From NCBI GenBank assembly GCA_036867785.1, contig CP145420.1, forward strand, positions 682,001-746,000: 64,000 nt of DNA, written 5' to 3'. Below are positions 8,494-63,035 of the stretch, piece by piece; positions within the stretch are counted from its first letter, which is position 1; the number at the start of each line of letters is the position of its first letter. Source of the stretch: Plasmodiophora brassicae. Lineage: Eukaryota. Position numbers and translations under genes: made by a program. The notes beneath the pieces were generated by a model. That model was given only the letters and a program-made list of their open reading frames with translations. It was not told the DNA's origin and did not search any database.

Positions 8494-9798
8494 ATGTACA
8501 CTGACGGGCGGGGATGTCTCAGGGCTGTAGTATGGACGGCCGGGATCCTGATCGCCATTCGCAGTGGGCTTGCCGATCGTGTCATACTGCTGTCCAGCGA
8601 GGGCGATCAGCACATCGTCAATACCTCGGCTGCCGTCGGTCACTCCGGGCTGCTGAATCAATTAATCAGCCGCCCTTGCAGAGGCGGCGACGACATTATT
8701 CCCCTGCCACACGTTGGCAGTGCCGAGTTGGGACCGATCGCGGGTTTCATCAACAGCGTCCCGCTGCACAAGGTACATCTATGTATCAACCGTTGTCTTT
8801 GCTGATGGAGATGGCGAACTGATGCTTCGTAACAGACTGAGAGGGCGGTGCAGTGGGTTCAGGTCAACCTTAAGGGTGTGGAGCTTGAAGAGCAGTGCCG
8901 CGTGTTGACAGCCGCCGACTACCTTGACATGCACTCGCTCATGATCGCCATTGCGTCTACGAGACGCACCTGGAGCGATATCGATGCGATGCGCGGGTTT
9001 CTGTCCAGGAATGTTTTCCGGTTCCTCGCCGATAACGCGCCAGGCCTCATCCGTCTAAATCAGGTCGCCCGTACAGCCAGGCAGAAGGCGATCGGCGAGC
9101 GGATCCATCGTTGCCTCGTCGCTGGAGGTCATGTCGCATTCGTCCATACCGAACCATGGGACAGCGGCTTGGACGTACTGCAATGGGCCGCCGAGAAAGG
9201 ACGACGGTCGATAGTCGAACTGCTGGTGACGGGCCCTGGAATCGACGTGAACGCGCCCAGCCCGAGCGCCCAGCGGTTGCTTCATTGGGCCGCGTTCTGG
9301 GGATGGGTGAACCTCGTAGAGGTGTTGCTCGTATCCCCGACGACAGACGTCAATGCGCGGGATAACGACAGGCCAACGCCCCTGCATTGCGCCGCCGTCG
9401 CTGGACGCAATCACGTCGTCAAGGTGCTACTGAGCTTCGCCGGCATCCAGGTCAATGCGGGCGACGCGAGCAATAAGACAGCATTGCACTGGGCCGTCTG
9501 GTCCGGCCCCAGCAGTAGGCATAGCGAAGTCGTCGAGTTGCTGCTGAGGGCTCCGGGGATAAACGCCAATGCGCGTGACCAGGACTTAATGACGCCGTTG
9601 CACTGGGCGGTTACCTGTCGGCGCGGCTACGCTGTCAGGTTACTGCTGGCGACCCCGGGAATTGACGTCCAATGTCGCGACAAGGCGCAGATGACACCGT
9701 TGCAGAGCGCCTTAGTCTATGGGAACCAGGAGATCGTAGGTCTGCTAGTGAATGCGACCGTGAACGCCGCCAGCGTCGTCTCGATACGATTGGCATAA
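8494..9798 (+). CDS. Putative secreted Skp1/BTB-like + ankyrin-repeat protein; intron 8773-8835
   Basis: Hydrophobic N-terminus (AVVWTAGILIAIRSGLA); Skp1/POZ-like VILLSSEGDQHIV...IIPLPHVGSAEL and VLTAADYLDMHSL; ~6 ankyrin repeats (TPLHCAAVAG, TALHWAV, TPLHWAV, GIDVNA). Confidence 0.85.
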
Positions 9799-16681: not shown

Positions 16682-17002
16682 CGATGCCGAATCCCTGTTG
16701 GGGCTGGCACGCGCCCCCGCCTGTCCCTCACAGACCCGGGATATCTTTCCAGATCGCCGTGGCACACGTGGCCAGCGGCGGCCCACGCCGTCATCGCCTT
16801 CCCGAACCGGACAGTCGTGGCCGTGTATTGTCTGGAACAGGTGGCCCCAGGAAGCTGCAGTCGCGCACCCAGTATGTCCTGCAAATGCGTGACTGTGGAC
16901 TGCAACGGTGCGTCAGTGCAGCTACGTGCGGGTCACTCACGGCCCGGGGCACCTTTGTTCAATACACATCGCCGAAGCGCCGCCCGTGCGCGCTGGCCGC
17001 CG

Positions 17003-18973
17003 ATGGTGGGAGTCGCCGCGCGCGCCCTGGCATGTATTCGCGCTCGTCTAGGAGCGTCGTCGTCGACGACCGACCACCTGTTCGGCGTGTTCCGGGCGCA
17101 CCCGTCAGTGGCGACGGCGGTGTCGGCACTGAAGGTGGAACAGGACCGCAATCGGGGCCTGGCCGTCTACCGATGGGTGATCGAATCCAGCCTGCCGGCC
17201 GGTCTTCCGTTCTTCCAGGCCAGCATGGCCTTCTGCAGACGGTCGTACCCTGAGCAGGCACCGATGGTCCTGCAAGCGGCCCTGTCCCGGCAGATTGGCG
17301 TCTATGAACCGCTCTTCTGCATGTTTCTCAGCGCTTGCCGGAAAGCGAGGCCGGTGCTCGTTCAGGACGCATTGGATATGTACGCCAGATGTGGGCCACG
17401 AACCGCTGGCGTTCTGGTCGACATGGCGACGGTTTGCAAGGTGGGCGGGCGCCCTGACGATGCGTTGTTTCTGCTGGACGATGCCCTGGCCGGGAATGTC
17501 GCGATTCCAGAGAGGCTGCTGGCGATGCTGGCAAGGTGCTGTGCGAAGTCAAGGTCGCCCCGGGCCGCTGACCTTGCCGAGCGACTGTTCAACATGATGA
17601 ACGACGAGCGTATCTCGATGCATGATAACATGACAATGTACAGCAACCTGATCAAAGCGCTGCTGGCGCAGGGGCGTTTCGACGCCTGCCTCAAAGCGAT
17701 CTACCTGATGGACCTGCGGCGGCTGCCGCCTTCGGAACCGATTTTCAACCTAGTCCTGAACGCCCTGGCCAAGAATGACCGTTGTACGCTGGCGATGACC
17801 GTGTTCTGGATGACGGTGCAGAGGCGAATCCGATTGTACTGCCCGGTGGTCGGGGGCCTGGCGGCCTCCTGTGGCAGGGCGGCCAACCTGCCCGCCCTGG
17901 AATCCGTCCGACGGTACGCCAACGACCATTCCATGGAGGCGAACGACGTTGTGCTCAGCGGTCTCATCTCTGGGTACGCTCACTGCGTGCACGTCTTCGT
18001 CGCTCAGCAACTGTTCCAGGACCGGTGCCGGGCGACGATGCCCCCCGGCTTCGTATTCGACGCCATGATCGGGGCGTACAGTCTCCATGGGATGCTACCG
18101 AAGGCGATTGCCACGTTCGACCAGATGATCGAATCGCAACGGAAGCCGTCTGAACGGACGCTGACCACCCTCCTTCTCGGGTGCTGTCATGTCGGTGATC
18201 TGGATCGCGCTAAAGGGTTCATCGCTGACTTCCTGCGTTCCTACGGTATCTCGTGTACTGCCGAGTCTTCCCAATTTCTGGTCGATTTGTACGGCAGGCA
18301 CGGCAACCTGGACGATGCCGAACAGATTGTGGTGTCCTCGTTCAACAACGATGCTGCGTCATGGGCCAGTCTTCTCAACGCCTGCCGCGTGCACAAGGAC
18401 ATCGTTCGAGCAGAACGCGTGTTCTCCAAGGTCATCTCGTTGCCGAACGCGTCGCTGGCGTCTGCGTACGTAGAAATGTCAAAGATCTATGCAAGCGCAT
18501 CACTGTTCCCTCAAGCGATCCATATGCGACAGCAGATGAGGGCGCTGGGGCTGGTCGACGGGCCGCGCTCGACAACCGTCCAGCTTCCTGACCGGTCGAT
18601 AACCTTCAAGTCGTGCGATGCGGTGTACCATACGGACGCCAGGCTGAACGCACAGCATGGGCGGATGATCGGGTGCCTGCTGGACAACGGGTACAGGCCC
18701 GACGTGTCGCTGCTCGCCATACAGATGGCCTCCGAGGAAGACGCTCGCCAATCGGTGTACCTGCACAGCGACAAGATCGCGTTGGCGTTCGCGCTCATGC
18801 ACGTGGCACCCTGCGACCCGATTCGCCTGACGAAGAACACGAAGATGTGTCCGGACTGCCACTGGGTCGCCAAGCGCGTCTCCGGTCTGTTGAACCGCGA
18901 CGTCTACGTTCGCGACGTTGCCAGACATCATCATTTCAGACATGGTCAATGTTCCTGTAACGATTACTGGTAG
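17003..18973 (+). CDS. PLS-class pentatricopeptide repeat protein with E1/E2 and DYW domain; intronless; ORF is open from 16817, with an alternative ATG at 16874
   Basis: PPR motifs (MYSNLIKALLAQGRFD, VFDAMIGAYSLHGMLPKAIATFDQM, LVDLYGRHGNLDDAE), E1 WASLLNACRVHKD, E2 AYVEMSKIYA, DYW GYRPD...HSDKIALAF...CPDCH...HHFRHGQCSCNDYW*. Confidence 0.95.
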   Translation: MVGVAARALACIRARLGASSSTTDHLFGVFRAHPSVATAVSALKVEQDRNRGLAVYRWVIESSLPAGLPFFQASMAFCRRSYPEQAPMVLQAALSRQIGVYEPLFCMFLSACRKARPVLVQDALDMYARCGPRTAGVLVDMATVCKVGGRPDDALFLLDDALAGNVAIPERLLAMLARCCAKSRSPRAADLAERLFNMMNDERISMHDNMTMYSNLIKALLAQGRFDACLKAIYLMDLRRLPPSEPIFNLVLNALAKNDRCTLAMTVFWMTVQRRIRLYCPVVGGLAASCGRAANLPALESVRRYANDHSMEANDVVLSGLISGYAHCVHVFVAQQLFQDRCRATMPPGFVFDAMIGAYSLHGMLPKAIATFDQMIESQRKPSERTLTTLLLGCCHVGDLDRAKGFIADFLRSYGISCTAESSQFLVDLYGRHGNLDDAEQIVVSSFNNDAASWASLLNACRVHKDIVRAERVFSKVISLPNASLASAYVEMSKIYASASLFPQAIHMRQQMRALGLVDGPRSTTVQLPDRSITFKSCDAVYHTDARLNAQHGRMIGCLLDNGYRPDVSLLAIQMASEEDARQSVYLHSDKIALAFALMHVAPCDPIRLTKNTKMCPDCHWVAKRVSGLLNRDVYVRDVARHHHFRHGQCSCNDYW

Positions 18974-19045: not shown

Positions 19046-20020
19046 TCACTCTGCATTGACGGGAGCAGCCGGCGCCTCCATCGACTCCCCGGCCGGTTTG
19101 TCGTCGGCTTCCTGGACGACGGGCGTCGACGACACCTGGACGGGTTCGTCGGCGGACGCCTCGACGGCGACCTCCGGCGAAGGTGCCGGCTGTTCACCCT
19201 CCTCAATCGGCATCTTGGCGCTCTCTTCAGGTTCCTCCACCTTGGCTGGAGATTCGTCTTGCATCGGCTCTACTTCAGGGATGCCACTTGCTTCCGCCTG
19301 CTCAGGAGCTTCTTCCTTGGTTTTGGACGCGTACTTTGCGTCAGGAGCTTCCTCAGCTTCCTCAGGGGTCTCCTCTGCTTCGGCGGTTTCCAGTTCATCC
19401 AGTTCACCGGCGACTTCTTTCTCTTCAGGCAATTCTTCCTCCTCTTCAGGATCTTCCTCGTGTGCCTCCTCCTCGTCGGCTTCGTCGACTTCCTCCTCAC
19501 GGTCTTCCTCTTCTGGCTCCGCGCCGAGGTCTTCTTCGGCCCCTTCCCCACTGACGTCCTCGTCACCTTTGGCCTTCTTGGCCCTGGTCTTCTTCAGCGC
19601 TGCCGTCGCTCGTCGTTTCGCTGGTGCCTTCTTCTGAGCCTCCGCACCTTCCTCTTCTTTCGGTTCAGGGAACCCGCCCTTCGCCTTAACCTTCTTCATG
19701 AACTCCTTCTTGAACTCGGCCTCGATCTTGAACTTGCCCCTAACCTTCACGACGTGCCCTTGATCGATCCCCTTGTCCAGGCCATCCTTGAAATGACGGG
19801 CGAATCCCGCATCGGACACCGTGTAACGCGAGCGGACCCAGTCCTGGATCTGCTGTCGCGACACGGTCCCTTTCAGGTCGCAGATCGCCTCCATGATCAT
19901 ATGCGCGAACGTCGGGTGCTTCGTCTTCGGTGTCGACGTCTTCGCCTTCCCCGCCGCCGCCGCCCGCTTCGGCGTCGACACCTTCGCCTTGCTCGGCGAC
20001 GCTGTCGCCGTCTTCACCAT
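19046..20020 (-). CDS. Linker histone H1/H5 (H15) domain protein with long acidic tail; intronless
   Basis: K/A/P-rich N-terminus and globular HPTFAHMIMEAICDLKGTVSRQQIQDWVRSRY...LDKGIDQGHVVKVRGKFK, then a Glu-rich tail. Confidence 0.8.
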   Translation of the reverse strand: MVKTATASPSKAKVSTPKRAAAAGKAKTSTPKTKHPTFAHMIMEAICDLKGTVSRQQIQDWVRSRYTVSDAGFARHFKDGLDKGIDQGHVVKVRGKFKIEAEFKKEFMKKVKAKGGFPEPKEEEGAEAQKKAPAKRRATAALKKTRAKKAKGDEDVSGEGAEEDLGAEPEEEDREEEVDEADEEEAHEEDPEEEEELPEEKEVAGELDELETAEAEETPEEAEEAPDAKYASKTKEEAPEQAEASGIPEVEPMQDESPAKVEEPEESAKMPIEEGEQPAPSPEVAVEASADEPVQVSSTPVVQEADDKPAGESMEAPAAPVNAE

Positions 20021-27964: not shown

Positions 27965-29323
27965 TCATTGGGTGACGGGAGACAGCGGTTCAGGCTGGCG
28001 CTGGACGCGGTGATGGCGCACCCGTCGGGACCGGTGCGATTCGTGGTTGGACGTGGCGATATCGTAGGCGACGAAGGCGGCCAGGGCGGCGACGATGACG
28101 CCGATGACGATCGTCAGTTCGGCGTAGTCGAGGGGCGGTGAGGGCGGCGCCGTTTGCGCCACGATGCTCTTGACGTGGTCGGCGACCGGCACAAGGACCT
28201 CGAACAGGTGGGCAGCGGCACGGTCGGCCATGCGTTTGGCGACCACGACGCCTTGCGTCCTGATCAGTGCCCCGCCTTTGTTCACGACCTGGCTGGCGAA
28301 CGTGTCGATCTGCCGCTGCTCGATGTGGTACGCGAACAGCAAGCATACGCCAAACACAAGGATGGCGATGAGTGGCATCGAGCGGCTGTACGACCCATCA
28401 CCTGGAACAGCACCAGGCGTCTCCAGCGACATCTTTGCGTTGTCAGTAAAGCGGCGACGTTGATTCACTGACAAGATAGACACCTTTTGTGGGTCAGCGC
28501 CGGCGTCGGTGATGGCGCCAGGGTTGACGACGCCTTTCGGGTCTTCCAGGACGACGACGAGGCTTTGGACAAAGGTGAAGTTCAGCATTTCGTTGCCGTT
28601 GACGATGTCGTCGGCGGTGAGGATCGGCTTCAACCCGATGGACTTGGCGGCGAACAGGACAACGGAGGCGCGGGACAGGCGACGCTCACGCGTACCGTCG
28701 TCCGGGTCGGCAACGGTCGTCGCCGGACAGCATCCGGACAGCAGCGACAGGTACGCCTTGCTGTCGGATAGGTCGTCGCCCAGGTTCGTGATCGTCGCCT
28801 GCGACGCTAGGCGCTTGTTGACCCATTCCATGACCAGGCGCTTGTGGTCCTGATTGGAGATGGCGGCACCGCCGCCGTCTTCACCTTCGTCGCCGGCCGT
28901 CAGTCGGTGCATGGTTCGCGACCGCATCTGCACGTGCACGATCTGCCAGAGCAGGCCGAGAACGAGCGATGGATGATGGCACGAGTCGACGAGGTCGTTC
29001 TCGTCGACGTTGATGACGACGGCAGTGCTTCGGACGGCGTCGAGGTACACGCGCTGGTTCTCGCCCATCTCGAATCGGTTCGTCGGGTGGGCATTGACGC
29101 GAGCAGACGGGATCGACCCAGGGAACACGTGCTCCAGGAACCGGCAGTGCACGACGCCATCGGCGAGGCGTCGCAGGAGGTCCACCGGATCGTCGTCTTT
29201 CCACCCGTCAAGGCGATGCTCGTCGGGAAGCTCGGCGAGAAGGTGCCGGCCGATGCCCTTGATCTCGGCCGCCATGGTGGACGATAGGCGAACGTCGCCG
29301 TCGGTCTGCACGATCGCGTCCAT
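27965..29323 (-). CDS. Fimbrin/plastin-type CH-CH actin-binding domain with two C-terminal TM helices
   Basis: LADGVVHCRFLEHVFPGSI...NRFEMGEN...LVLGLLWQIV (CH1); LVMEWVNKRL...TNLGDDLSDSKAYLSLL...LTADDIVNGNEMLNFTFV (CH2); two hydrophobic helices. Confidence 0.82.
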   Translation of the reverse strand: MDAIVQTDGDVRLSSTMAAEIKGIGRHLLAELPDEHRLDGWKDDDPVDLLRRLADGVVHCRFLEHVFPGSIPSARVNAHPTNRFEMGENQRVYLDAVRSTAVVINVDENDLVDSCHHPSLVLGLLWQIVHVQMRSRTMHRLTAGDEGEDGGGAAISNQDHKRLVMEWVNKRLASQATITNLGDDLSDSKAYLSLLSGCCPATTVADPDDGTRERRLSRASVVLFAAKSIGLKPILTADDIVNGNEMLNFTFVQSLVVVLEDPKGVVNPGAITDAGADPQKVSILSVNQRRRFTDNAKMSLETPGAVPGDGSYSRSMPLIAILVFGVCLLFAYHIEQRQIDTFASQVVNKGGALIRTQGVVVAKRMADRAAAHLFEVLVPVADHVKSIVAQTAPPSPPLDYAELTIVIGVIVAALAAFVAYDIATSNHESHRSRRVRHHRVQRQPEPLSPVTQ

Positions 29324-29525
29324 GGCTATTGGTCGAGTGTCGCTGGGACGCGCGTGCAATTGGTGTGTCACGCCATGGGCACCTGGGACAAGGCCCAACT
29401 GCCTGAAGTGTATGATCACAGATGATGCGGTTCGAGGTTGGACGCGGGCGCCGCCTGAGGCACGAGCGTCTTTGGGCTGCTGTGCGGAAGAGGGGCTGGA
29501 CCGCTGAGTGCACGTTGGCGCGTGT

Positions 29526-31190
29526 TCATTCTGCCGCGTCGACGCTCCTGCAGATACGTTCATGGCGAATCTGAAACGCGCGTCAGGATACTTACACCGG
29601 CCTGCAGGTAGCGAAGCTTGTCCCGGTCGGTGCCCGGCTTAACGTCCTTGTCGATGGGCTGTGGATGGGTACTGCCCTCCTTAACGGCAACAAACGTGAA
29701 GTATCCCTGAGAGGCCGGGCCGATGTCAGATTGATGCTGGAGCGAAGCTTAGCTAGCTGCTGACCGAGTTCGTGTGCTCGCCGGCATCCGTTTCCGACCC
29801 GAAGGTCGGCAAATGCTTCAGCTCGACAACCTCGACTCGGACACCGACCTTGATATTTGCATAGGAATAAGACCCAGCGTAGTGACAGCCTGGCACACGC
29901 AGCTCACCTCCATTGACGTACGGAACACGCGATTGACCTGGGCGCGAACGATGACACACGATCCAACGGGAACCTGACTATTGCTAAACGAGCAGCTGCA
30001 GCGGTATGGCGAAGGGCAACACGCTATACCTGGGAGACGAATTTCATCTTGTCGAGTCCTACGGTAAGGATGGCCGACCTGCACAGGCGCAGCGCGGCGA
30101 TCTGTGCGGCCTGCTCCATCCACTGGAGAATCGTCCCACCAAAGGCGATACCGAGAGGGTTGGCGTGCGCCGGCATGACCGCCTTCGTCATCGACAGCTT
30201 CGTATCTTCGACCGGGACCTCGACCAGGCCGGGCGGAAGTGCTGTCAGCGTTTCCAGATGCGCGGTCCACATCTTTGGCACATCGATTACCCGGGCTTTG
30301 ACTCGTTCCTTGAACGCCCGGTTGCGTTGTTGTGCGGCTTTGTAAGCGGCACGCTGTACGTCATATTCAGGAACTCATTGCCGTACTGGGACGATCGTTG
30401 ACGCGTACCTCCTCGGGCGTTTCAGGTTCAAGCGCCGGAACGGGTCGCGGTCTTCGCTTCTTACTCAAAGCGACAAACTTCAGAAGGGCTCGACAGCAGA
30501 AGTCGCGCTGCCCCGTTAGCGGGTGCTCGACGTAGACGACCACCTCGATTTCCATGCTGCACCGAGCGAGGCGTCAAGCACGGTACCAACTAAACGCCCG
30601 CAGACGAGACGCACCTCGACGAAAATGCAGCGGTCACCTTGGCTGTAAGGATGATGATGTCGCTGACTCTAGCCGGCGTCCTTTCAAGACACGCGTCAGC
30701 TGGCGACACCCAGCACCCAGCGTTCGTACCGGAAATGGATTTCGTCCATGGACACGGTGACAACGCTCCCCTAGCCCGCAATTGATCCTACATTGCCAAA
30801 CGCCCACGAGCCATGCATCCTTACTTCCGAATGTCGAATCGCGCAGATGCCCGCGATCTTATCAACCTGACAGCCGCTTCGTCAGCAGCCGATGACCGAA
30901 GCATTGGCCTACCCGTACCATTGCCAGCAGCTCCCCGCCATAGCAAATGTTGAACATCGTACACTGACTGGGCGTCAGAGTTTCCAGTCCCTCGACGATG
31001 GAATCCTCCGGCACCTTGACCTTCGCTGCCACACAGATCTTTAGGTCCATTTCATCATGCAGCCCGGCCGCTGGGCGGTCCTACGTTTGCCATTCTTGTT
31101 CCGACTGAGATAGTATCGCAGGGCGGCGGCACCACCGGCAACAGCAATGCATGCTCCAGCGCCAGCGGCCATGATCCGTTCCGGCCCCAT
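29526..31190 (-). CDS. Acyl-CoA thioesterase, double hot-dog (ACOT7/11/12-like), multi-exon
   Basis: NICYGGELL, AFSSSMEIEVVV, VMPAHANPLGIAFGGTILQWME, VNRVFRTSMEV, YFTFVAV. Confidence 0.88.
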
Positions 31191-49549: not shown

Positions 49550-52500
49550 ATGGACGACATCAACGAAGCGGACGACGACGCGCTTTCGCTGGACAGCCTC
49601 GAGGACAAACCGGAAGCGAGCAAGGACAGCGCGTCGGACGTCAACGATGACGCAGGCGAGACCAAAGACAAACCTTCGAGCGTCGACCCGCAGACCGATC
49701 CGGTGAACACGGGTGCCCCCGTTGACCGCGCCTCGTTCGACAACAAGCCGGACGCGCCCGATATCGATCTAGACGCTGCGCTCGCTGCCGTCCCCAACAT
49801 CTTCCCTAATCAGGACGAGGAACCGTCAGCCGCCGTCCTGCCGCCCGACAACACGGCGGATATACTGGCGGCTATTGACGAAGGCGCCAAGGTGCTCGCC
49901 GATGCAGAGCTGGATGTCCCCAGGTTACAGCTCGGTTCCATCGCCGCCGAAAATCAGGCGCCACCTCAGCCAGATGGCGACGCCACATCCGAACACGAAC
50001 TGGCACAGGAACAAACGGCGAAGCCTGTTGGTCTACCAGCGCCCGACGGGGCACTTCCTATGCCTGTGCAGGTATGGCTCCCCATCTTGGGTGGAGCGTT
50101 TCCATAACGTGTGTCGGACAGGTTGCCGATGTCGACGATGATGGTGACGGTGCTGCGGGTGATGCGGACGTAGCCGACGAGGAGGACGACGTGGTTGATC
50201 CTGATGACCCGCTCGTGGCGCGCCTGCAGGCGGCCATGATGGCGCAGTTGCAGGACGCGGCGACGCGCCTAGACGAGAACCTGCGCGAGCGCAACGAGGA
50301 GGTCAAACGCCTGAACAAGAAGCGGGAGACCATCGGTGTCGACCTGTATGGCCTGCAGCAGCAGCTCGCGCGCATGCAGATGCAGCTGGAGAAGACGCAC
50401 GACCGGTTCAATATGTTCAACCGGTTGCGAGCCAAGGCGGAGGAGGATCGGGAACTGCTGCTGGCCGACCTGTCTTCGAAGAGCGCGGCGAGGGACACCG
50501 CTCTGCAACATGCCGAGCTGATCGCACGCGAGTTCAACAACGTCAGCACGACGTTGCGGCAGGTGGCCGAGTACAACGAGTCGATCAAGAGCGAGATCAA
50601 GGTGACGCGACGGGCGGCATACGCCGAGGAGGCCGAGATGACGAAGCAGGAGAAGGAGAAGAAGGCGCAGGACTACCAGATCGCCGCCATGAACGAGCAG
50701 ATCGCCGGGTTGCAAGCGCGCGTCCAGACGCTAACGGAGCAGGTCGCAACGCAGAAGTCGCAGACAGGTGGCGCGCGCGAGACGATCCAGTTGGCGTTGG
50801 ATGAGATGGCGCAGATCCGCGCCGATAAGAACGAGTACATCTCGAAATGGAAGTCGGCGCTGATCGCGCTGTCGCGCCGCAACAAGGCCTTGGAAGGGTG
50901 CGATCGCGAGCGGCAACGCCTGCAGGCCGAGCTCGTTCGTCTGGACAGCGAGTACGCCGGCTTCGTCAAAGACGTACGCCGCGAGCAGGAGACCAACGAG
51001 AAGCTTACGGAAGTGCTCACCAAAGTCATCACCGAATGCAAATTTATCGAGGCTCAGATCGCCCGAATTCAGGTACGAACCCCGACGGAAGACGCTTTGG
51101 CCCTGTGTCGTGACACGTTGTACCAGACGGCGAGAACGAAGGCGTCGTCTGAATACGATGTGTTCAAGGACCAGCTGGCGAAGACGGATGAGCAACTGCA
51201 GGAAGGTTCGAGTTTCTGTGGATGGTTCCTGGCCGGCGTCTGTGCTTAGTGCAACAATGACAGTGCAAGGGCAGCGCAGGCTGTTGGAGCTGGAAATCCA
51301 GCGCATCGAGAAGTGCATCTCGGCGAGCGATGCGGCCAGGACGGCGATCGAGAACGAGATCCTCGAGAAGATGTCGAATCAGACGACAACGGAGCAGGGG
51401 ACGCAGAACACCCTGAAGGCCATCATGAAGCTTCGCAAGACGATCGAAGCGACCGTTGGAATATCGTGCTGGCTGGTACGGCAGGCGGCTGAGACGGGTA
51501 TGTCGTTGTACAGGAGAAGAAGATCGGCGCAGCGCAGAACGAAATTGCCCGCGTCAAGGTCGACATTCTGAACACGACGGCCCACAACAAAGACCTGAAG
51601 AAGACGTTGGCGGCGTTCGAGAAAGAGGTATTAGCAGAAAGGGCGTGTGAGCATCAGGCGATTGACGCCTTGGATATGTAGCTTAAAGAGAAAGACCTGC
51701 TGATCGACAAGTACGAGACCGAGAACGCGTTGCGCAACGACATGATCCAGAAGAAGCAGATCGCGATCGATGCGCTGAACAGGAAGTACGAGCAGCTGAC
51801 CAAGAACGTTGTCGAGGACACGAGCAGTGCTTCGCTGGAAGGCAAGATCGACGGACTCAATCGTGAACTCCAGGTAGGGGTCTGAAACCACTGCCACGCT
51901 CAGTGCTGACAAGCCGAACAGGCGGTACGGAATTCGTCCACTGACCTACAACGGAAGTGGATCGGCACCCAGACCGAGTTACTGGAGGTGGAAGCCATCT
52001 CGTCCGCCGAGATCAATAAGGTCGCCGAATTGGCCGCGAGGCACACCGTCCTCGGCCAGAAATCCAAGCGGCTTCAACGTCTGCGCGCCTCGGTGACCGG
52101 TCAGCAATGCTGGAATCGAGTTGCGCTGTACCAGTACCTGACTGGTCGGAACGGCAGATGAGATCAAGGAATTGCGCAAGACGATGACGTCCATTCACTT
52201 GGAGATCACGAAACTGAACGGCCTGCTGGTGGAATTTAAGACACGGCAGGAAACGTTGGGCAGCGAGAACCGGACATCGGAGATCACGTTCAAGGAGCGC
52301 GGTGTGCAGATTGAACAGGAGCGGGCGGGCGGCGAGAAGAAGATCGAGGCTCTCCAGGCAGCCCGAGATAGCCTGCTGGAGGAAGTTAGCGAGATATCCG
52401 CCCAGATCCTCATCTGGGAACGCAAGATCAACCTGGAGAAGGAAACGCAGCAGGCCATTGACCCTGAGGTCGGCCAAGCCGAGGTAACCGGTCGCATGGT

Positions 52501-55524: not shown

Positions 55525-56499
55525 TTAGGCAATGACGTTGACTTTGTCGGCGATGGCGAGTTGCGCCCGTGTTAGGCTAGACAGGTAGCTCACAGACAGC
55601 AGGTCGCTGACCGATCCCTGGAACGCCCCCTCGAACCATTCGCCGTCGAACGCCTGCGGGACCGCGCTGACAGCGCTCGCCAGCAGTCTTCCGACGTCGT
55701 TGTCCGGTTCGATCTCGCCGCTGACGACGCGATCGACGTAATCGCAAACGTCGGCCAGCATGCTGTGCAGGCTCTCCACCGACATCTGCAGCCCCTGCTG
55801 CTGCGTCAGCAAGGTGGCCGGCGAATCGAAACGGTCATCGTCCGGCTGCGACTGAATCAGGGCGTCGATCGCGATCTTGTCGTCGTCGAATGCAACGAAC
55901 TCGACGTCGACCTCGTCGAACACGCCTAGAAGCGGGGTCGCGTCCGCGCTTGACGTGATGACCGATGGCGTGTACCCGCAGACGGAGAGCTTGGACCCTT
56001 CCAGGCTTGTGTCGACCGCGAGTATTACAGGGCGTTGACCCGACATCATGGACTGGAACGACCTCGATATCGTCACGCTGGACTGCGTCAGCGACCCGGT
56101 CGTGTACCACCCGACGACGGTCAACGTGGACGACACCCGCGTGTACAATTCAAGCATGGCCCTGTGGTAGTCCATGTCGACAGCAACGACCTGGTCGTCC
56201 TGTTCGTTGTGCGGCACGGGGAACGAGTCCTTGATCTGGGTCTGGCCGCTGGGCAGCCGGACGCCGAGCAGCGTCCCGATAACGCGCTGCTGCTTGGCGT
56301 TGCGCCGCTTGTAATGGTCCAGTATCGACATGATGACGACCGGTTCGACCGTGAACGGCGCCGGCAGGCTGGCCGGGCGCATCTGGACGGCTCGATGCTG
56401 GAGCGACATCGCGTCGAGACAAGCGCCCTGCACTGCGGTGTCCGCCACGGACTCCGCCGCCGCCGCACCTCCCTCATCGCCACCTGGCTGCCCCACCAT
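55525..56499 (-). CDS. EIF3F: Translation initiation factor eIF3 subunit F (MPN domain)
   Basis: VEPVVIMSILDHYKRR...RVIGTLLG...DSFPVPHNE...VAVDMDYHRAMLEL...VVGWYTTG; C-terminal YVDRVVSGE.PDNDVGR. Confidence 0.92.
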   Translation of the reverse strand: MVGQPGGDEGGAAAAESVADTAVQGACLDAMSLQHRAVQMRPASLPAPFTVEPVVIMSILDHYKRRNAKQQRVIGTLLGVRLPSGQTQIKDSFPVPHNEQDDQVVAVDMDYHRAMLELYTRVSSTLTVVGWYTTGSLTQSSVTISRSFQSMMSGQRPVILAVDTSLEGSKLSVCGYTPSVITSSADATPLLGVFDEVDVEFVAFDDDKIAIDALIQSQPDDDRFDSPATLLTQQQGLQMSVESLHSMLADVCDYVDRVVSGEIEPDNDVGRLLASAVSAVPQAFDGEWFEGAFQGSVSDLLSVSYLSSLTRAQLAIADKVNVIA

Positions 56500-62050: not shown

Positions 62051-62808
62051 ATGTCGACCACCAGCACTAGCACGCCGGACGTCAGCGGCGCCGACTCCAA
62101 GGACCACGTGTCGATGACCACCGGAGTCAGACTGACGGGCGCGGACAACTACACGACATGGGCGTTCGCGATGACCGCCATGCTGGACGCGCACGGGCTT
62201 GCCGATTACGTGGACAAGTCCAAGTCGGCGCGTGCCACGGATGAGAGGAAGAAGGCCCGAGCCATGTTCGCCATCACGCGGAACATCGGGACGTCCCATA
62301 TGGCTCTGATCAAGGGATGCACCAGAGATCCCGCTGGAGCGTGGGACATCCTTCGCGATGAATACGCCGGGAAGTCCAACCAGGACACGGCGACTCTGCT
62401 GATAGAGCTATTCGGGAAGAGGCTGGACCCCTGCCCGTCAATCGAGGAGGCGAAGGCGCATTTCGAGCGCATGAACGACCTGAACTTGCGATTGAGGGAG
62501 ATACAGGAGGACCGAGCACTTCCCGATGTGATCCTGTCGGTGCTCATGGCGATGCCGCTTCCTAACGACATGGAGCAGATCCGCTACGCGCGCCTTTCGG
62601 GCCCGGCTGAGATGCTGACATCGAGAACTATTCGAGACGACGTGATATCGCTGCTCCGTCGCATGGCGGTGACGGATGGTGCGGCGGCCAACTCTGGCGA
62701 TGCCGCGATGAATGCGAACTCGGGCGGTGGCGGTGGACGACGACGCCGGTTTCGGGGGAATTGCTTTGAATGCGGGAAGGCGGGCCACCGCGCGGCGAAC
62801 TGCCGTCA
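62051..62808 (+). mobile_element. gag: Ty1/Copia gag, truncated after the zinc knuckle (no pol in the window)
   Basis: LTGADNYTTWAFAMTAMLDAHGL (Copia gag N-terminus), UBN2-like core (AWDILRDEY, LPNDME), CCHC knuckle CFECGKAGHRAANC. Confidence 0.9.
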
Positions 62809-63035
62809 GCGCGCTGGCCCGCCTTCCCGCATTCAAAGCAATTCCCCCGAAACCGGCGTCGTCGTCCACCGCCCGAGTTCGCATTCATCGCGGCATCGCC
62901 AAAGTTGGCCGCCGCACCATCCGTCACCGCCATGCGACGGAGCAGCGATATCACGTCGTCTCGAATAGTTCTCGATGTCAGCATCTCAGCCGGGCCTGAT
63001 AGGCGCGCGTAGCGGATCTGCTCCATGTCGTTAGG
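62561..63035. repeat. Near-perfect palindrome of the gag 3' part: arms 62561-62793 and 62809-63035, 15-nt loop
   Basis: Direct comparison shows 4 substitutions and one 6-nt indel over ~230 bp. Confidence 0.95.

Follow-up and report, generated by a model that had tools for sequence, protein, structure and literature searches.

What is a protein with the complete layout of a land-plant organelle RNA-editing factor doing in a flagellated protist? The question is raised by a gene of Plasmodiophora brassicae, a phytomyxean with biflagellate zoospores that causes clubroot. This parasite is of economic importance and cannot be grown in culture without its host. The gene lies on the forward strand of a stretch of 64,000 nucleotides (assembly GCA_036867785.1, contig CP145420.1, positions 682,001 to 746,000), here called the window, and encodes a pentatricopeptide repeat (PPR) protein that closes with putative E1 and E2 motifs and a DYW domain. 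It is a native nuclear gene, its product has the architecture and the fold of the PPR-E1-E2-DYW proteins, it belongs to a large P. brassicae family, and its active site carries an aspartate where the catalytic glutamate is found elsewhere. Our preferred reading—to which we give a probability of roughly 0.6—is that the protein would serve as a sequence-specific mitochondrial RNA factor in an as yet unreported phytomyxean system of cytidine-to-uridine (C-to-U) editing or RNA maturation, with targeting, RNA binding, and editing as its predicted steps.

For the origin of organelle C-to-U editing, and for the number of times that it arose or was transferred, the main clue comes from DYW-type PPR proteins found beyond plants. 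The status of this gene, its relatives, and its active site are taken up in turn below, followed by the role that they might support.

Architecture and fold of the PPR-E1-E2-DYW protein

The open reading frame (ORF) runs from ATG 17003 to TAG 18973 over 656 codons, and the protein ends in SCNDYW*. Both the frame and the architecture had been named in an earlier, sequence-only reading of this DNA, and they are borne out by the reading of the ORF, by Pfam, by alignment to Protein Data Bank (PDB) entries, and by an AlphaFold2 model (Table 1). The Pfam profiles PPR (E=4.9e-21, best-scoring stretch at residues 351–378) and PPR_2 (E=1.5e-15) match the protein, as do PPR_3 and PPR_long. DYW_deaminase (PF14432) is matched at E=7.1e-27 and 93.5 bits (cut-off 24), with residues 563–656 covering profile positions 1–93 of 93.

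The best PDB sequence match is the synthetic PPR-DYW protein 9kfx, crystallised in an RNA-bound state, at E=4.2e-84 for the whole protein; residues 352–656 align unbroken with its P2-L2-S2-E1-E2-DYW part. Further sequence matches are DYW1 (7w86_A, E=3e-20) and OTP86 (7o4e_A, E=1.1e-17). The same picture emerges from the structural side: with the AlphaFold2 model as query, the top PDB match in Foldseek is 9kfx_A (E=6.2e-27, TMq 0.62 over 634 columns), and the DYW domain of OTP86 (7o4e_B) matches the model with a TMt of 0.79.

The model itself was calculated from 56 aligned sequences and reaches a predicted local distance difference test score (pLDDT) of 95.1 and a predicted template modelling score of 0.89. 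It displays 12 helix hairpins (starting at residues 36, 68, 102, 135, 170, 210, 245, 280, 315, 349, 384, and 420), two further hairpins at residues 451–484 and 485–519, and an alpha/beta domain at residues 520–656. The last seven PPR hairpins, from r6 to S2, have lengths of 35-35-35-34-35-36-31 residues and sequence types P-P-L-S-P2-L2-S2—the very string that had been read from the sequence, now matched by length as well as by sequence. Upstream of this string lie five degenerate PPR-like hairpins (residues 36–209), which a language-model feature search scored as PPR-like at 0.95. The registers of the repeats were taken from the helix starts of the model and, for P2, from the 9kfx alignment, whereas the putative E1 and E2 motifs are assigned from the 9kfx alignment and the modelled helices together.

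Within the DYW domain, the zinc ligands H588, C616, C619, and H620 are kept, and the spacing between the HxE position and CxxCH is plant-like. At the second zinc site and the C-terminus (HHHFRHGQCSCNDYW), HHHF...CSC and the terminal DYW are intact, and alignment A1 shows no variation at H643, C650, C652, or W656.

The start of the gene is less sharply defined than its end. The frame stays open from the upstream stop, giving a 718-aa ORF that starts with GTG at 16817, and a second in-frame ATG lies at 16874. Across the family described below, N-extensions of 72 to 142 aa precede a conserved FCxR anchor; here, counted from ATG 17003, it is 77 aa. The deposited models of the gene are shorter, with 516 aa (start at the internal Met141) and 445 aa (start at Met212), and repeats that are conserved across the family are missing from both of them, within residues 1–211 (17003–17635). 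The public annotation thus looks truncated at the N-terminus, and the full-length reading of 656 aa appears to be the better model. The gene is on record as CEP03665.1, "hypothetical protein PBRA_003272 [Plasmodiophora brassicae]", and in UniRef as a DYW domain-containing protein. As one paralogue that is already deposited, it is by itself of modest value; the practical gain is a corrected full-length model and a catalytic residue recorded as Asp.

A Plasmodiophora brassicae family and its origin

A HMMER search of 1.84 billion representatives of a 50%-clustered protein library gave 10054 matches at E≤0.001, the best 150 of which were listed. Among the matches listed, the top is formed by 55 to 60 non-plant representatives with 33–42% identity along the whole protein, its N-terminal part included; the plant PPR-DYW matches show 24–31% identity and mostly begin at about residue 210 to 360. 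True relatives were retrieved with the E-DYW region, whereas a whole-protein word-index search was dominated by plant PPR proteins and was uninformative. The N-terminal region separates both groups most clearly: in a phmmer search with residues 1–340, the family representatives score 76–310 bits and all plant proteins fetched score at most 42 bits. On these scores, residues 1–340—including r1–r5—are a marker region of a phytomyxean PPR/DYW family, and the protein studied here qualifies as a member.

A count of paralogues and a phylogeny of the E-DYW region had been proposed as checks in the sequence-only reading. The count stands at 59 family representatives or more in the clustered library, as drawn from the best 150 of the 10054 matches. 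Names were looked up for 30 of the 59: 28 belong to P. brassicae (24 with and four without a DYW domain), and two are environmental records. Because the library is clustered at 50%, the P. brassicae paralogues that are mutually less than 50% identical number at least 28. Within the window, a tblastn search for paralogues returned only the self match, with all remaining matches at E≥0.72.

The E-DYW region is present in 39 of the 59 representatives, and some of the 20 that lack it may be truncated gene models. In the family alignment of the 39, HxE is kept in 23 (20 HSE and three HGE), HxD occurs in two (HSD here and HVD in P0111), ten have V, A, P, T, or C in place of the Glu, and four have lost the His. 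CxxCH is intact in 32 and the DYW end in 21, while HxE and CxxCH are both intact in 20. From these counts, the family combines deaminase domains that look competent with others that look incompetent. With 20 of 39 members bearing canonical motifs, it is plausible that the family retains an active deaminase, and the substitution in the present gene is the mildest possible. The family thereby offers a natural series of intact and altered DYW sites (HxE, HxD, HxV, HxA, and others) for studying the non-deaminating domain.

The two environmental records (P0141 and P0157, European Nucleotide Archive) are family members with intact HSE, CxDCH, and DYW. Their scores for the N-terminal region are among the three lowest of the family, with P0146 between them, and a quick tree places them with those family rows that lie closest to the plants. 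Possibly, they represent relatives from other phytomyxids or endomyxans.

For the phylogeny, a maximum-likelihood tree was calculated from the C-terminal 215 residues (LG+C20+F+G4; 221 columns in 82 rows). All 39 family rows fall on one side of a single branch with an ultrafast bootstrap of 100 and a Shimodaira–Hasegawa-like approximate likelihood-ratio test (SH-aLRT) value of 98, and the split is present in 100% of 200 bootstrap trees; the opposite side holds 24 named land-plant rows and 19 plant-like rows. The tree is unrooted, its bootstrap was not fully converged (correlation 0.919), P0152 is long, and three rows are of deviant composition. Its plant rows were picked among the best matches to the query, and DYW proteins of Naegleria, Physarum, Acanthamoeba, paradinids, fungi, and rotifers are outside its sampling. 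Within this sampling, the tree shows a single origin of the family, followed by an expansion in the P. brassicae lineage, and the separation from all 24 land-plant sequences speaks against a recent acquisition from the host. On the ancient horizontal transfer suggested in the sequence-only reading, the unrooted tree is neutral, as it fits an ancient transfer and vertical descent alike. The description as a PLS-E1-E2-DYW protein of a flagellated protist is supported, as the protein is genuine and non-plant, and its nearest named proteins are from P. brassicae.

Such proteins have precedents. DYW-type PPR proteins beyond plants were first seen in Naegleria and then in Amoebozoa, Discoba, fungi, rotifers, and malawimonads (PMC13386178). 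The same survey of 2026 gives "31 DYW in Rhizaria", a number that fits the P. brassicae family found here. The paradinids, which are Rhizaria, express PPR-DYW transcripts alongside massive mitochondrial C-to-U and adenosine-to-inosine (A-to-I) editing, and, according to the authors, C-to-U editing had never before been reported in rhizarians (PMC11946409). The DYW domains of paradinids and fungi share a two-residue deletion between HxE and CxxC (PMC11946409). Because the HxE–CxxC spacing of the present protein is plant-like, it is probably of another DYW lineage. In Diplonema, one PPR-DYW protein is required for both C-to-U and A-to-I editing, and lineage-specific expansions of PPR-DYW proteins are described for heteroloboseans and malawimonads (bioRxiv 10.64898/2026.09.04.749523).

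The gene is native to the P. brassicae nuclear genome and no contamination, because its codon usage matches that of its neighbours and because its cluster at ≥90% identity holds a P. brassicae protein on megabase-scale contigs. The sequence-only reading had noted a GC content and codon style similar to the neighbouring genes, and this similarity can now be put in numbers: the GC content is 0.61, that of third codon positions (GC3) is 0.77, and relative synonymous codon usage correlates at r=0.87 with four pooled neighbours (the linker-histone-like, MPN/eIF3f-like, calponin-homology, and ankyrin genes). The ≥90%-identity cluster counts five members, CEP03665.1 among them, on contigs of 720,339 and 1,260,905 bases; their differences are few and conservative, and the C-terminal half is unchanged.

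At least four neighbours in the window are likewise long single ORFs with Pfam domains (289–532 aa). As the calponin-homology and ankyrin-repeat ORFs are uninterrupted, the window holds other genes, too, that appear to lack introns. The convergent linker-histone-like gene, which carries a long Glu/Lys/Ala-rich tail, accounts for the strong AT and GC skew of the 18–20 kb bin. A strong purine skew in the bin 50001–52000 (AT +0.24, GC +0.13) lies over an ORF that probably encodes a low-complexity charged protein, and near the end of the window a retrotransposon ORF shows, in addition to its gag profile, a weak match to DUF4219 (E=6.8e-4, 19.8 bits, under the cut-off of 27).

Table 1. Positions of the PPR-E1-E2-DYW gene, its parts, and neighbouring features in the window
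Feature	Position	Strand	Basis or remark
Complete ORF, PPR-E1-E2-DYW protein	17003..18973	+	no intron needed; Pfam and PDB alignment
Possible 43-codon N-terminal extension	16874..17002	+	upstream in-frame ATG; start not settled
Basic N-terminal stretch, residues 1–35, mitochondrial-presequence-like	17003..17107	+	composition; low-confidence modelled helix
r1–r5, degenerate PPR-like hairpins, residues 36–209, 32–40 aa each	17108..17629	+	model helices, repeat parse
r6–r9, residues 210–348, P-P-L-S (35, 35, 35, 34 aa)	17630..18046	+	model, repeat parse, PPR_3/PPR_long
P2-L2-S2, residues 349–450 (35, 36, 31 aa)	18047..18352	+	9kfx alignment, model
Putative E1 motif, residues 451–484	18353..18454	+	9kfx alignment; helices 451–463, 467–479
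Putative E2 motif, residues 485–519	18455..18559	+	9kfx alignment; helices 485–498, 502–514
DYW cytidine-deaminase-like domain, residues 520–656, PG box GPRSTTVQL to DYW end	18560..18970	+	PF14432, 7w86_A, 7o4e
H-S-D codons ("HxE" zinc/catalytic motif)	18764..18772	+	alignment; same in 5/5 members of ≥90% cluster
CxDCH zinc-binding motif, C616-P-D-C-H620, intact	18848..18862	+	alignment
Ankyrin-repeat protein	8929..9798	+	289-aa ORF
Linker-histone H1/H5-like gene, convergent	19046..20020	-	PF00538 E=3.8e-11; stop 73 bp from DYW stop
Calponin-homology protein	27965..29563	-	532-aa ORF
ORF of 391 aa	50074..51249	+	no Pfam match
MPN/JAB and MitMem_reg single ORF (eIF3f- or CSN6-like)	55525..56499	-	best non-self relative 54% identical
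copia-type long terminal repeat retrotransposon gag ORF	62051..62968	+	PF14223 E=5.5e-09

Proposed mitochondrial role and its rivals

The mechanism that we favour would begin with the basic N-terminus, which would direct import into the mitochondrion of the parasite itself. There, the superhelix of 12 PPR hairpins would bind one single-stranded mitochondrial RNA sequence, and P2-L2-S2-E1-E2 would position the DYW domain, which is of the zinc-deaminase type, a few nucleotides farther downstream, in the manner of plant editing factors. Taken together, the family members would most likely serve site-specific C-to-U editing together with related maturation of a large and intron-rich mitochondrial transcriptome. 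Because this member keeps the zinc ligands but has an Asp in place of the proton-shuttling Glu, it would be either a deaminase of reduced activity or a specificity factor relying on a paralogue with an intact site.

The predicted destination is suggested by the N-termini of the family. Residues 1–23 of the protein contain three Arg and no acidic residue, the first being D24, and the first 20 residues are modelled with a pLDDT of 57–62. Among 32 full-length family representatives, the first 30 aa hold on average 5.4 basic and 0.9 acidic residues, and 23 of the 32 have a net charge of at least +3. The longest hydrophobic run (AVLIFMCWG) in the first 35 aa of the present protein is six residues, so that no signal-peptide core is present, and a signal-peptide-like hydrophobic window occurs in one of the 32. 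Judged by composition, these N-termini fit mitochondrial presequences and not secreted effectors. Since P. brassicae is without a plastid, its own mitochondrion is the expected destination, and the mitochondrial role put forward in the sequence-only reading is, given the N-terminal composition, the charge of 23/32 family members, and the lack of a plastid, the most economical one.

The mitochondrial genome would offer ample work for such proteins. The mitochondrial DNA (mtDNA) of P. brassicae comprises 114,663 bp with 32 protein genes and is "strikingly intron-rich" with 54 introns, its annotation was difficult, with exon–intron boundaries that are hard to define, and non-ATG starts are given for nine of the 32 genes (PMC6823432). 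For an mtDNA of this kind, one would expect the nucleus to encode a large family of organellar RNA-binding proteins, be it for editing, splicing, or stabilisation.

Several findings, nevertheless, weigh against the preferred reading. The most direct one concerns the catalytic HxE motif, which reads H588-S589-D590 and hence has Asp at the Glu position, a feature not mentioned in the sequence-only reading. This is no sequencing slip, as all five members of the ≥90%-identity cluster carry it. By comparison, Glu occupies the catalytic position in 125 of 128 readable sequences among 137 non-family plant-like matches, a set that is biased toward the best matches to the query. (The underlying regular-expression census of the H-to-C spacing is noisy within the family, with 7/39 unmatched, and was used for the modal spacing and the plant-like set only.) Moreover, the PG box is degenerate, with G-P-R-S-T-T-V-Q-L versus P-G-x-S-W-I-E in plants and, thus, P-R for P-G; in many family members it reads P-G-R-T. 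The Pfam profile E_motif (PF20431) finds no match in the protein at E≤1, although 26 of the 56 sequences in alignment A2 are recognised by it. The residue pairs at position 5 and the last position of the repeats—S/S, N/Y, G/N, S/P, D/S, T/T, and Q/D—are mostly non-canonical, and the PPR code therefore yields no prediction of an RNA target. On the targeting side, the net charge of this protein in its first 30 aa is only +2, which is a modest signal.

The published record adds to these points. The alternative mtDNA starts are TTA, TTG, ATC, ATT, and GTG (PMC6823432); these are not of the ACG type that is repaired by C-to-U editing and give no direct hint of editing. The same paper makes no mention of PPR proteins and names RNA editing in the reference list only. 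A full-text search of the searchable literature found no description of a phytomyxean PPR/DYW family or of phytomyxean RNA editing. PMC8298192 mentions in passing two differentially expressed parasite genes labelled "pentatricopeptide repeat-containing", and the PPR genes treated in a further paper are those of the host. The word "undescribed" in the sequence-only reading thus needs to be narrowed: it applies to the phytomyxean family and its possible editing, but not to the gene, which is already deposited as a DYW protein, nor to rhizarian DYW domains as such, 31 of which are in the survey of 2026. The supplementary tables of PMC13386178, PMC6823432, and PMC8298192 may already include this gene.

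Structural membership among the PPR-DYW proteins stands, while the catalytic equivalence of an HSD copy to HSE enzymes is doubtful. In its most far-reaching form, the editing reading would comprise an unreported plant-like C-to-U editing in phytomyxean mitochondria, carried by a family of dozens of PPR-DYW proteins whose expansion was independent of land plants; roughly half of these paralogues, the HSD copy included, would have given up the canonical active site and would be specificity factors for intact relatives. We put this form forward tentatively, as a possibility with the odds somewhat against it.

The serious rival is a non-catalytic factor for mitochondrial RNA maturation (splicing, stabilisation, or cleavage), whose PPR tract would bind an intron, a transcript end, or an mRNA and whose DYW domain would be structural or would recruit a partner. 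It overlaps with the editing reading in targeting and RNA binding and differs in the chemistry only. Some plant PPR proteins of the DYW and E classes serve splicing or cleavage and not editing, and an HSD in place of HSE would be at home in such a protein. The same applies to the family, in which HxE and/or CxxCH are missing in 19 of 39 members and E-DYW in 20 of 59, and to the 54 mtDNA introns that have to be serviced (PMC6823432). However, the zinc ligands and the DYW end are all retained and the domain is modelled confidently, which one would not expect of a domain whose chemistry did not matter; no replacement of Glu is more conservative than Asp, which could still shuttle a proton; and the full catalytic signature is present in 20 of the 39 paralogues. 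On balance, we regard this rival as rather unlikely, albeit the best of the alternatives.

Decay of the gene, which would then be a relic, expressed or silent, on its way out of a large and redundant family, might be suspected from the active-site substitution, the degenerate PG box, a PPR array of the shortest class in the family, and the disagreement of the deposited models on the start. A relic would hardly be expected to keep a frame open over 656 codons (718 from the upstream stop), to differ so little and so conservatively among five cluster members with an unchanged C-terminal half, or to give a well-packed model with a pLDDT of 95, and we consider decay improbable.

An even lower probability is given to an effector directed at the host, which would bind or edit mitochondrial or plastid RNA of Brassica—the "factor aimed at host organelle RNA" of the sequence-only reading. 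The parasite lives within plant cells, the architecture is plant-like, and a basic N-terminus is in principle readable by the host import machinery. Yet the protein shows no signal-peptide-like core and the hydrophobicity threshold is exceeded in only one of the 32 family N-termini, plant proteins are just 21–35% identical over the whole protein and 30–37% over E-DYW, the family forms a clan apart from plants, and two environmental relatives exist; we found nothing that speaks for this idea specifically. Finally, an origin of the gene from host-plant DNA, either as a contaminant of the assembly or by recent transfer, which might come to mind as DYW-type PPR genes are overwhelmingly from land plants (10054 matches, with the plant-like ones among those listed ranking below the family), is next to impossible in view of a codon usage and GC3 equal to those of the neighbours, tightly packed flanking genes of the same codon style, cluster members on contigs of 0.72–1.26 Mb (the longest contig in the cluster of the MPN neighbour has the same size, 1,260,905 bases), scores of at most 42 bits for residues 1–340 on plant proteins, and the 100/98 split from 24 plant and 19 plant-like rows.

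If editing by intact relatives on behalf of altered ones is true, "recognition in cis, deamination in trans" would have been convergently re-invented in a crop parasite with a 54-intron mtDNA. If the transcripts are edited, the current mitochondrial gene models of P. brassicae, and the mitochondrial phylogenies, would need correction. The interest lies chiefly in the pattern across the family and in the prediction, which is open to test, of a cryptic mitochondrial editing in phytomyxeans, rather than in the single gene.

Comparison with known PPR-DYW systems

Within P. brassicae, the closest systems are the paralogues deposited as "DYW domain-containing protein" (among them P0041, P0042, and P0111–P0117). 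They show full-length homology at 33–42% identity, the N-terminal region included, and have basic N-termini and the clan in common with the present protein. The longer paralogues, the largest of which has 1189 aa, contain additional PLS-like blocks that lie between the N-terminal region and P2-L2-S2, whereas this copy is among the shortest, with a minimal array. Its HxD recurs in P0111 alone (HVD) among the 39, compared with HxE in 23.

Among protists, the PPR-DYW proteins of Naegleria, Acrasis, Diplonema (PPRD1), and the paradinids are likewise non-plant, nucleus-encoded combinations of PPR and DYW, and are compared here by description only. The paradinids provide a rhizarian precedent for PPR-DYW proteins occurring together with mitochondrial C-to-U editing. 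Diplonema has its PPR-DYW protein as a single copy, while P. brassicae has dozens.

The land-plant PLS-class PPR-E1-E2-DYW factors share the order of parts—PPR motifs of P, L, and S length, a terminal P2-L2-S2, E1 and E2 (both putative in the present protein), and DYW—as well as the zinc-ligand pattern (H, CxDCH, H...CxC), the H-to-C spacing, the fold, and the C-terminal DYW. The differences lie in the identity, which is 21–35% over the whole protein and 30–37% over E-DYW, in the active site and PG box, where the P. brassicae protein has Asp for the catalytic Glu and P-R, and in the array, which here consists of one PLS triplet and P2-L2-S2, preceded by the P motif r6 and the degenerate r1–r5. 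In addition, the P. brassicae family forms a separate clan in the E-DYW tree, and its marker region of residues 1–340 scores at most 42 bits on plant proteins.

Trans-deamination is known from plants, where CRR4 acts with DYW1, and E+ proteins act with DYW2, the DYW domain of the recognising partner being absent or degenerate. As in such CRR4/DYW1-type systems, the P. brassicae family has members with and members without the catalytic signature, here 20 and 19 of 39. The protein described here differs from them in that its DYW domain is complete, with a conservative exchange of Glu for Asp and no truncation.

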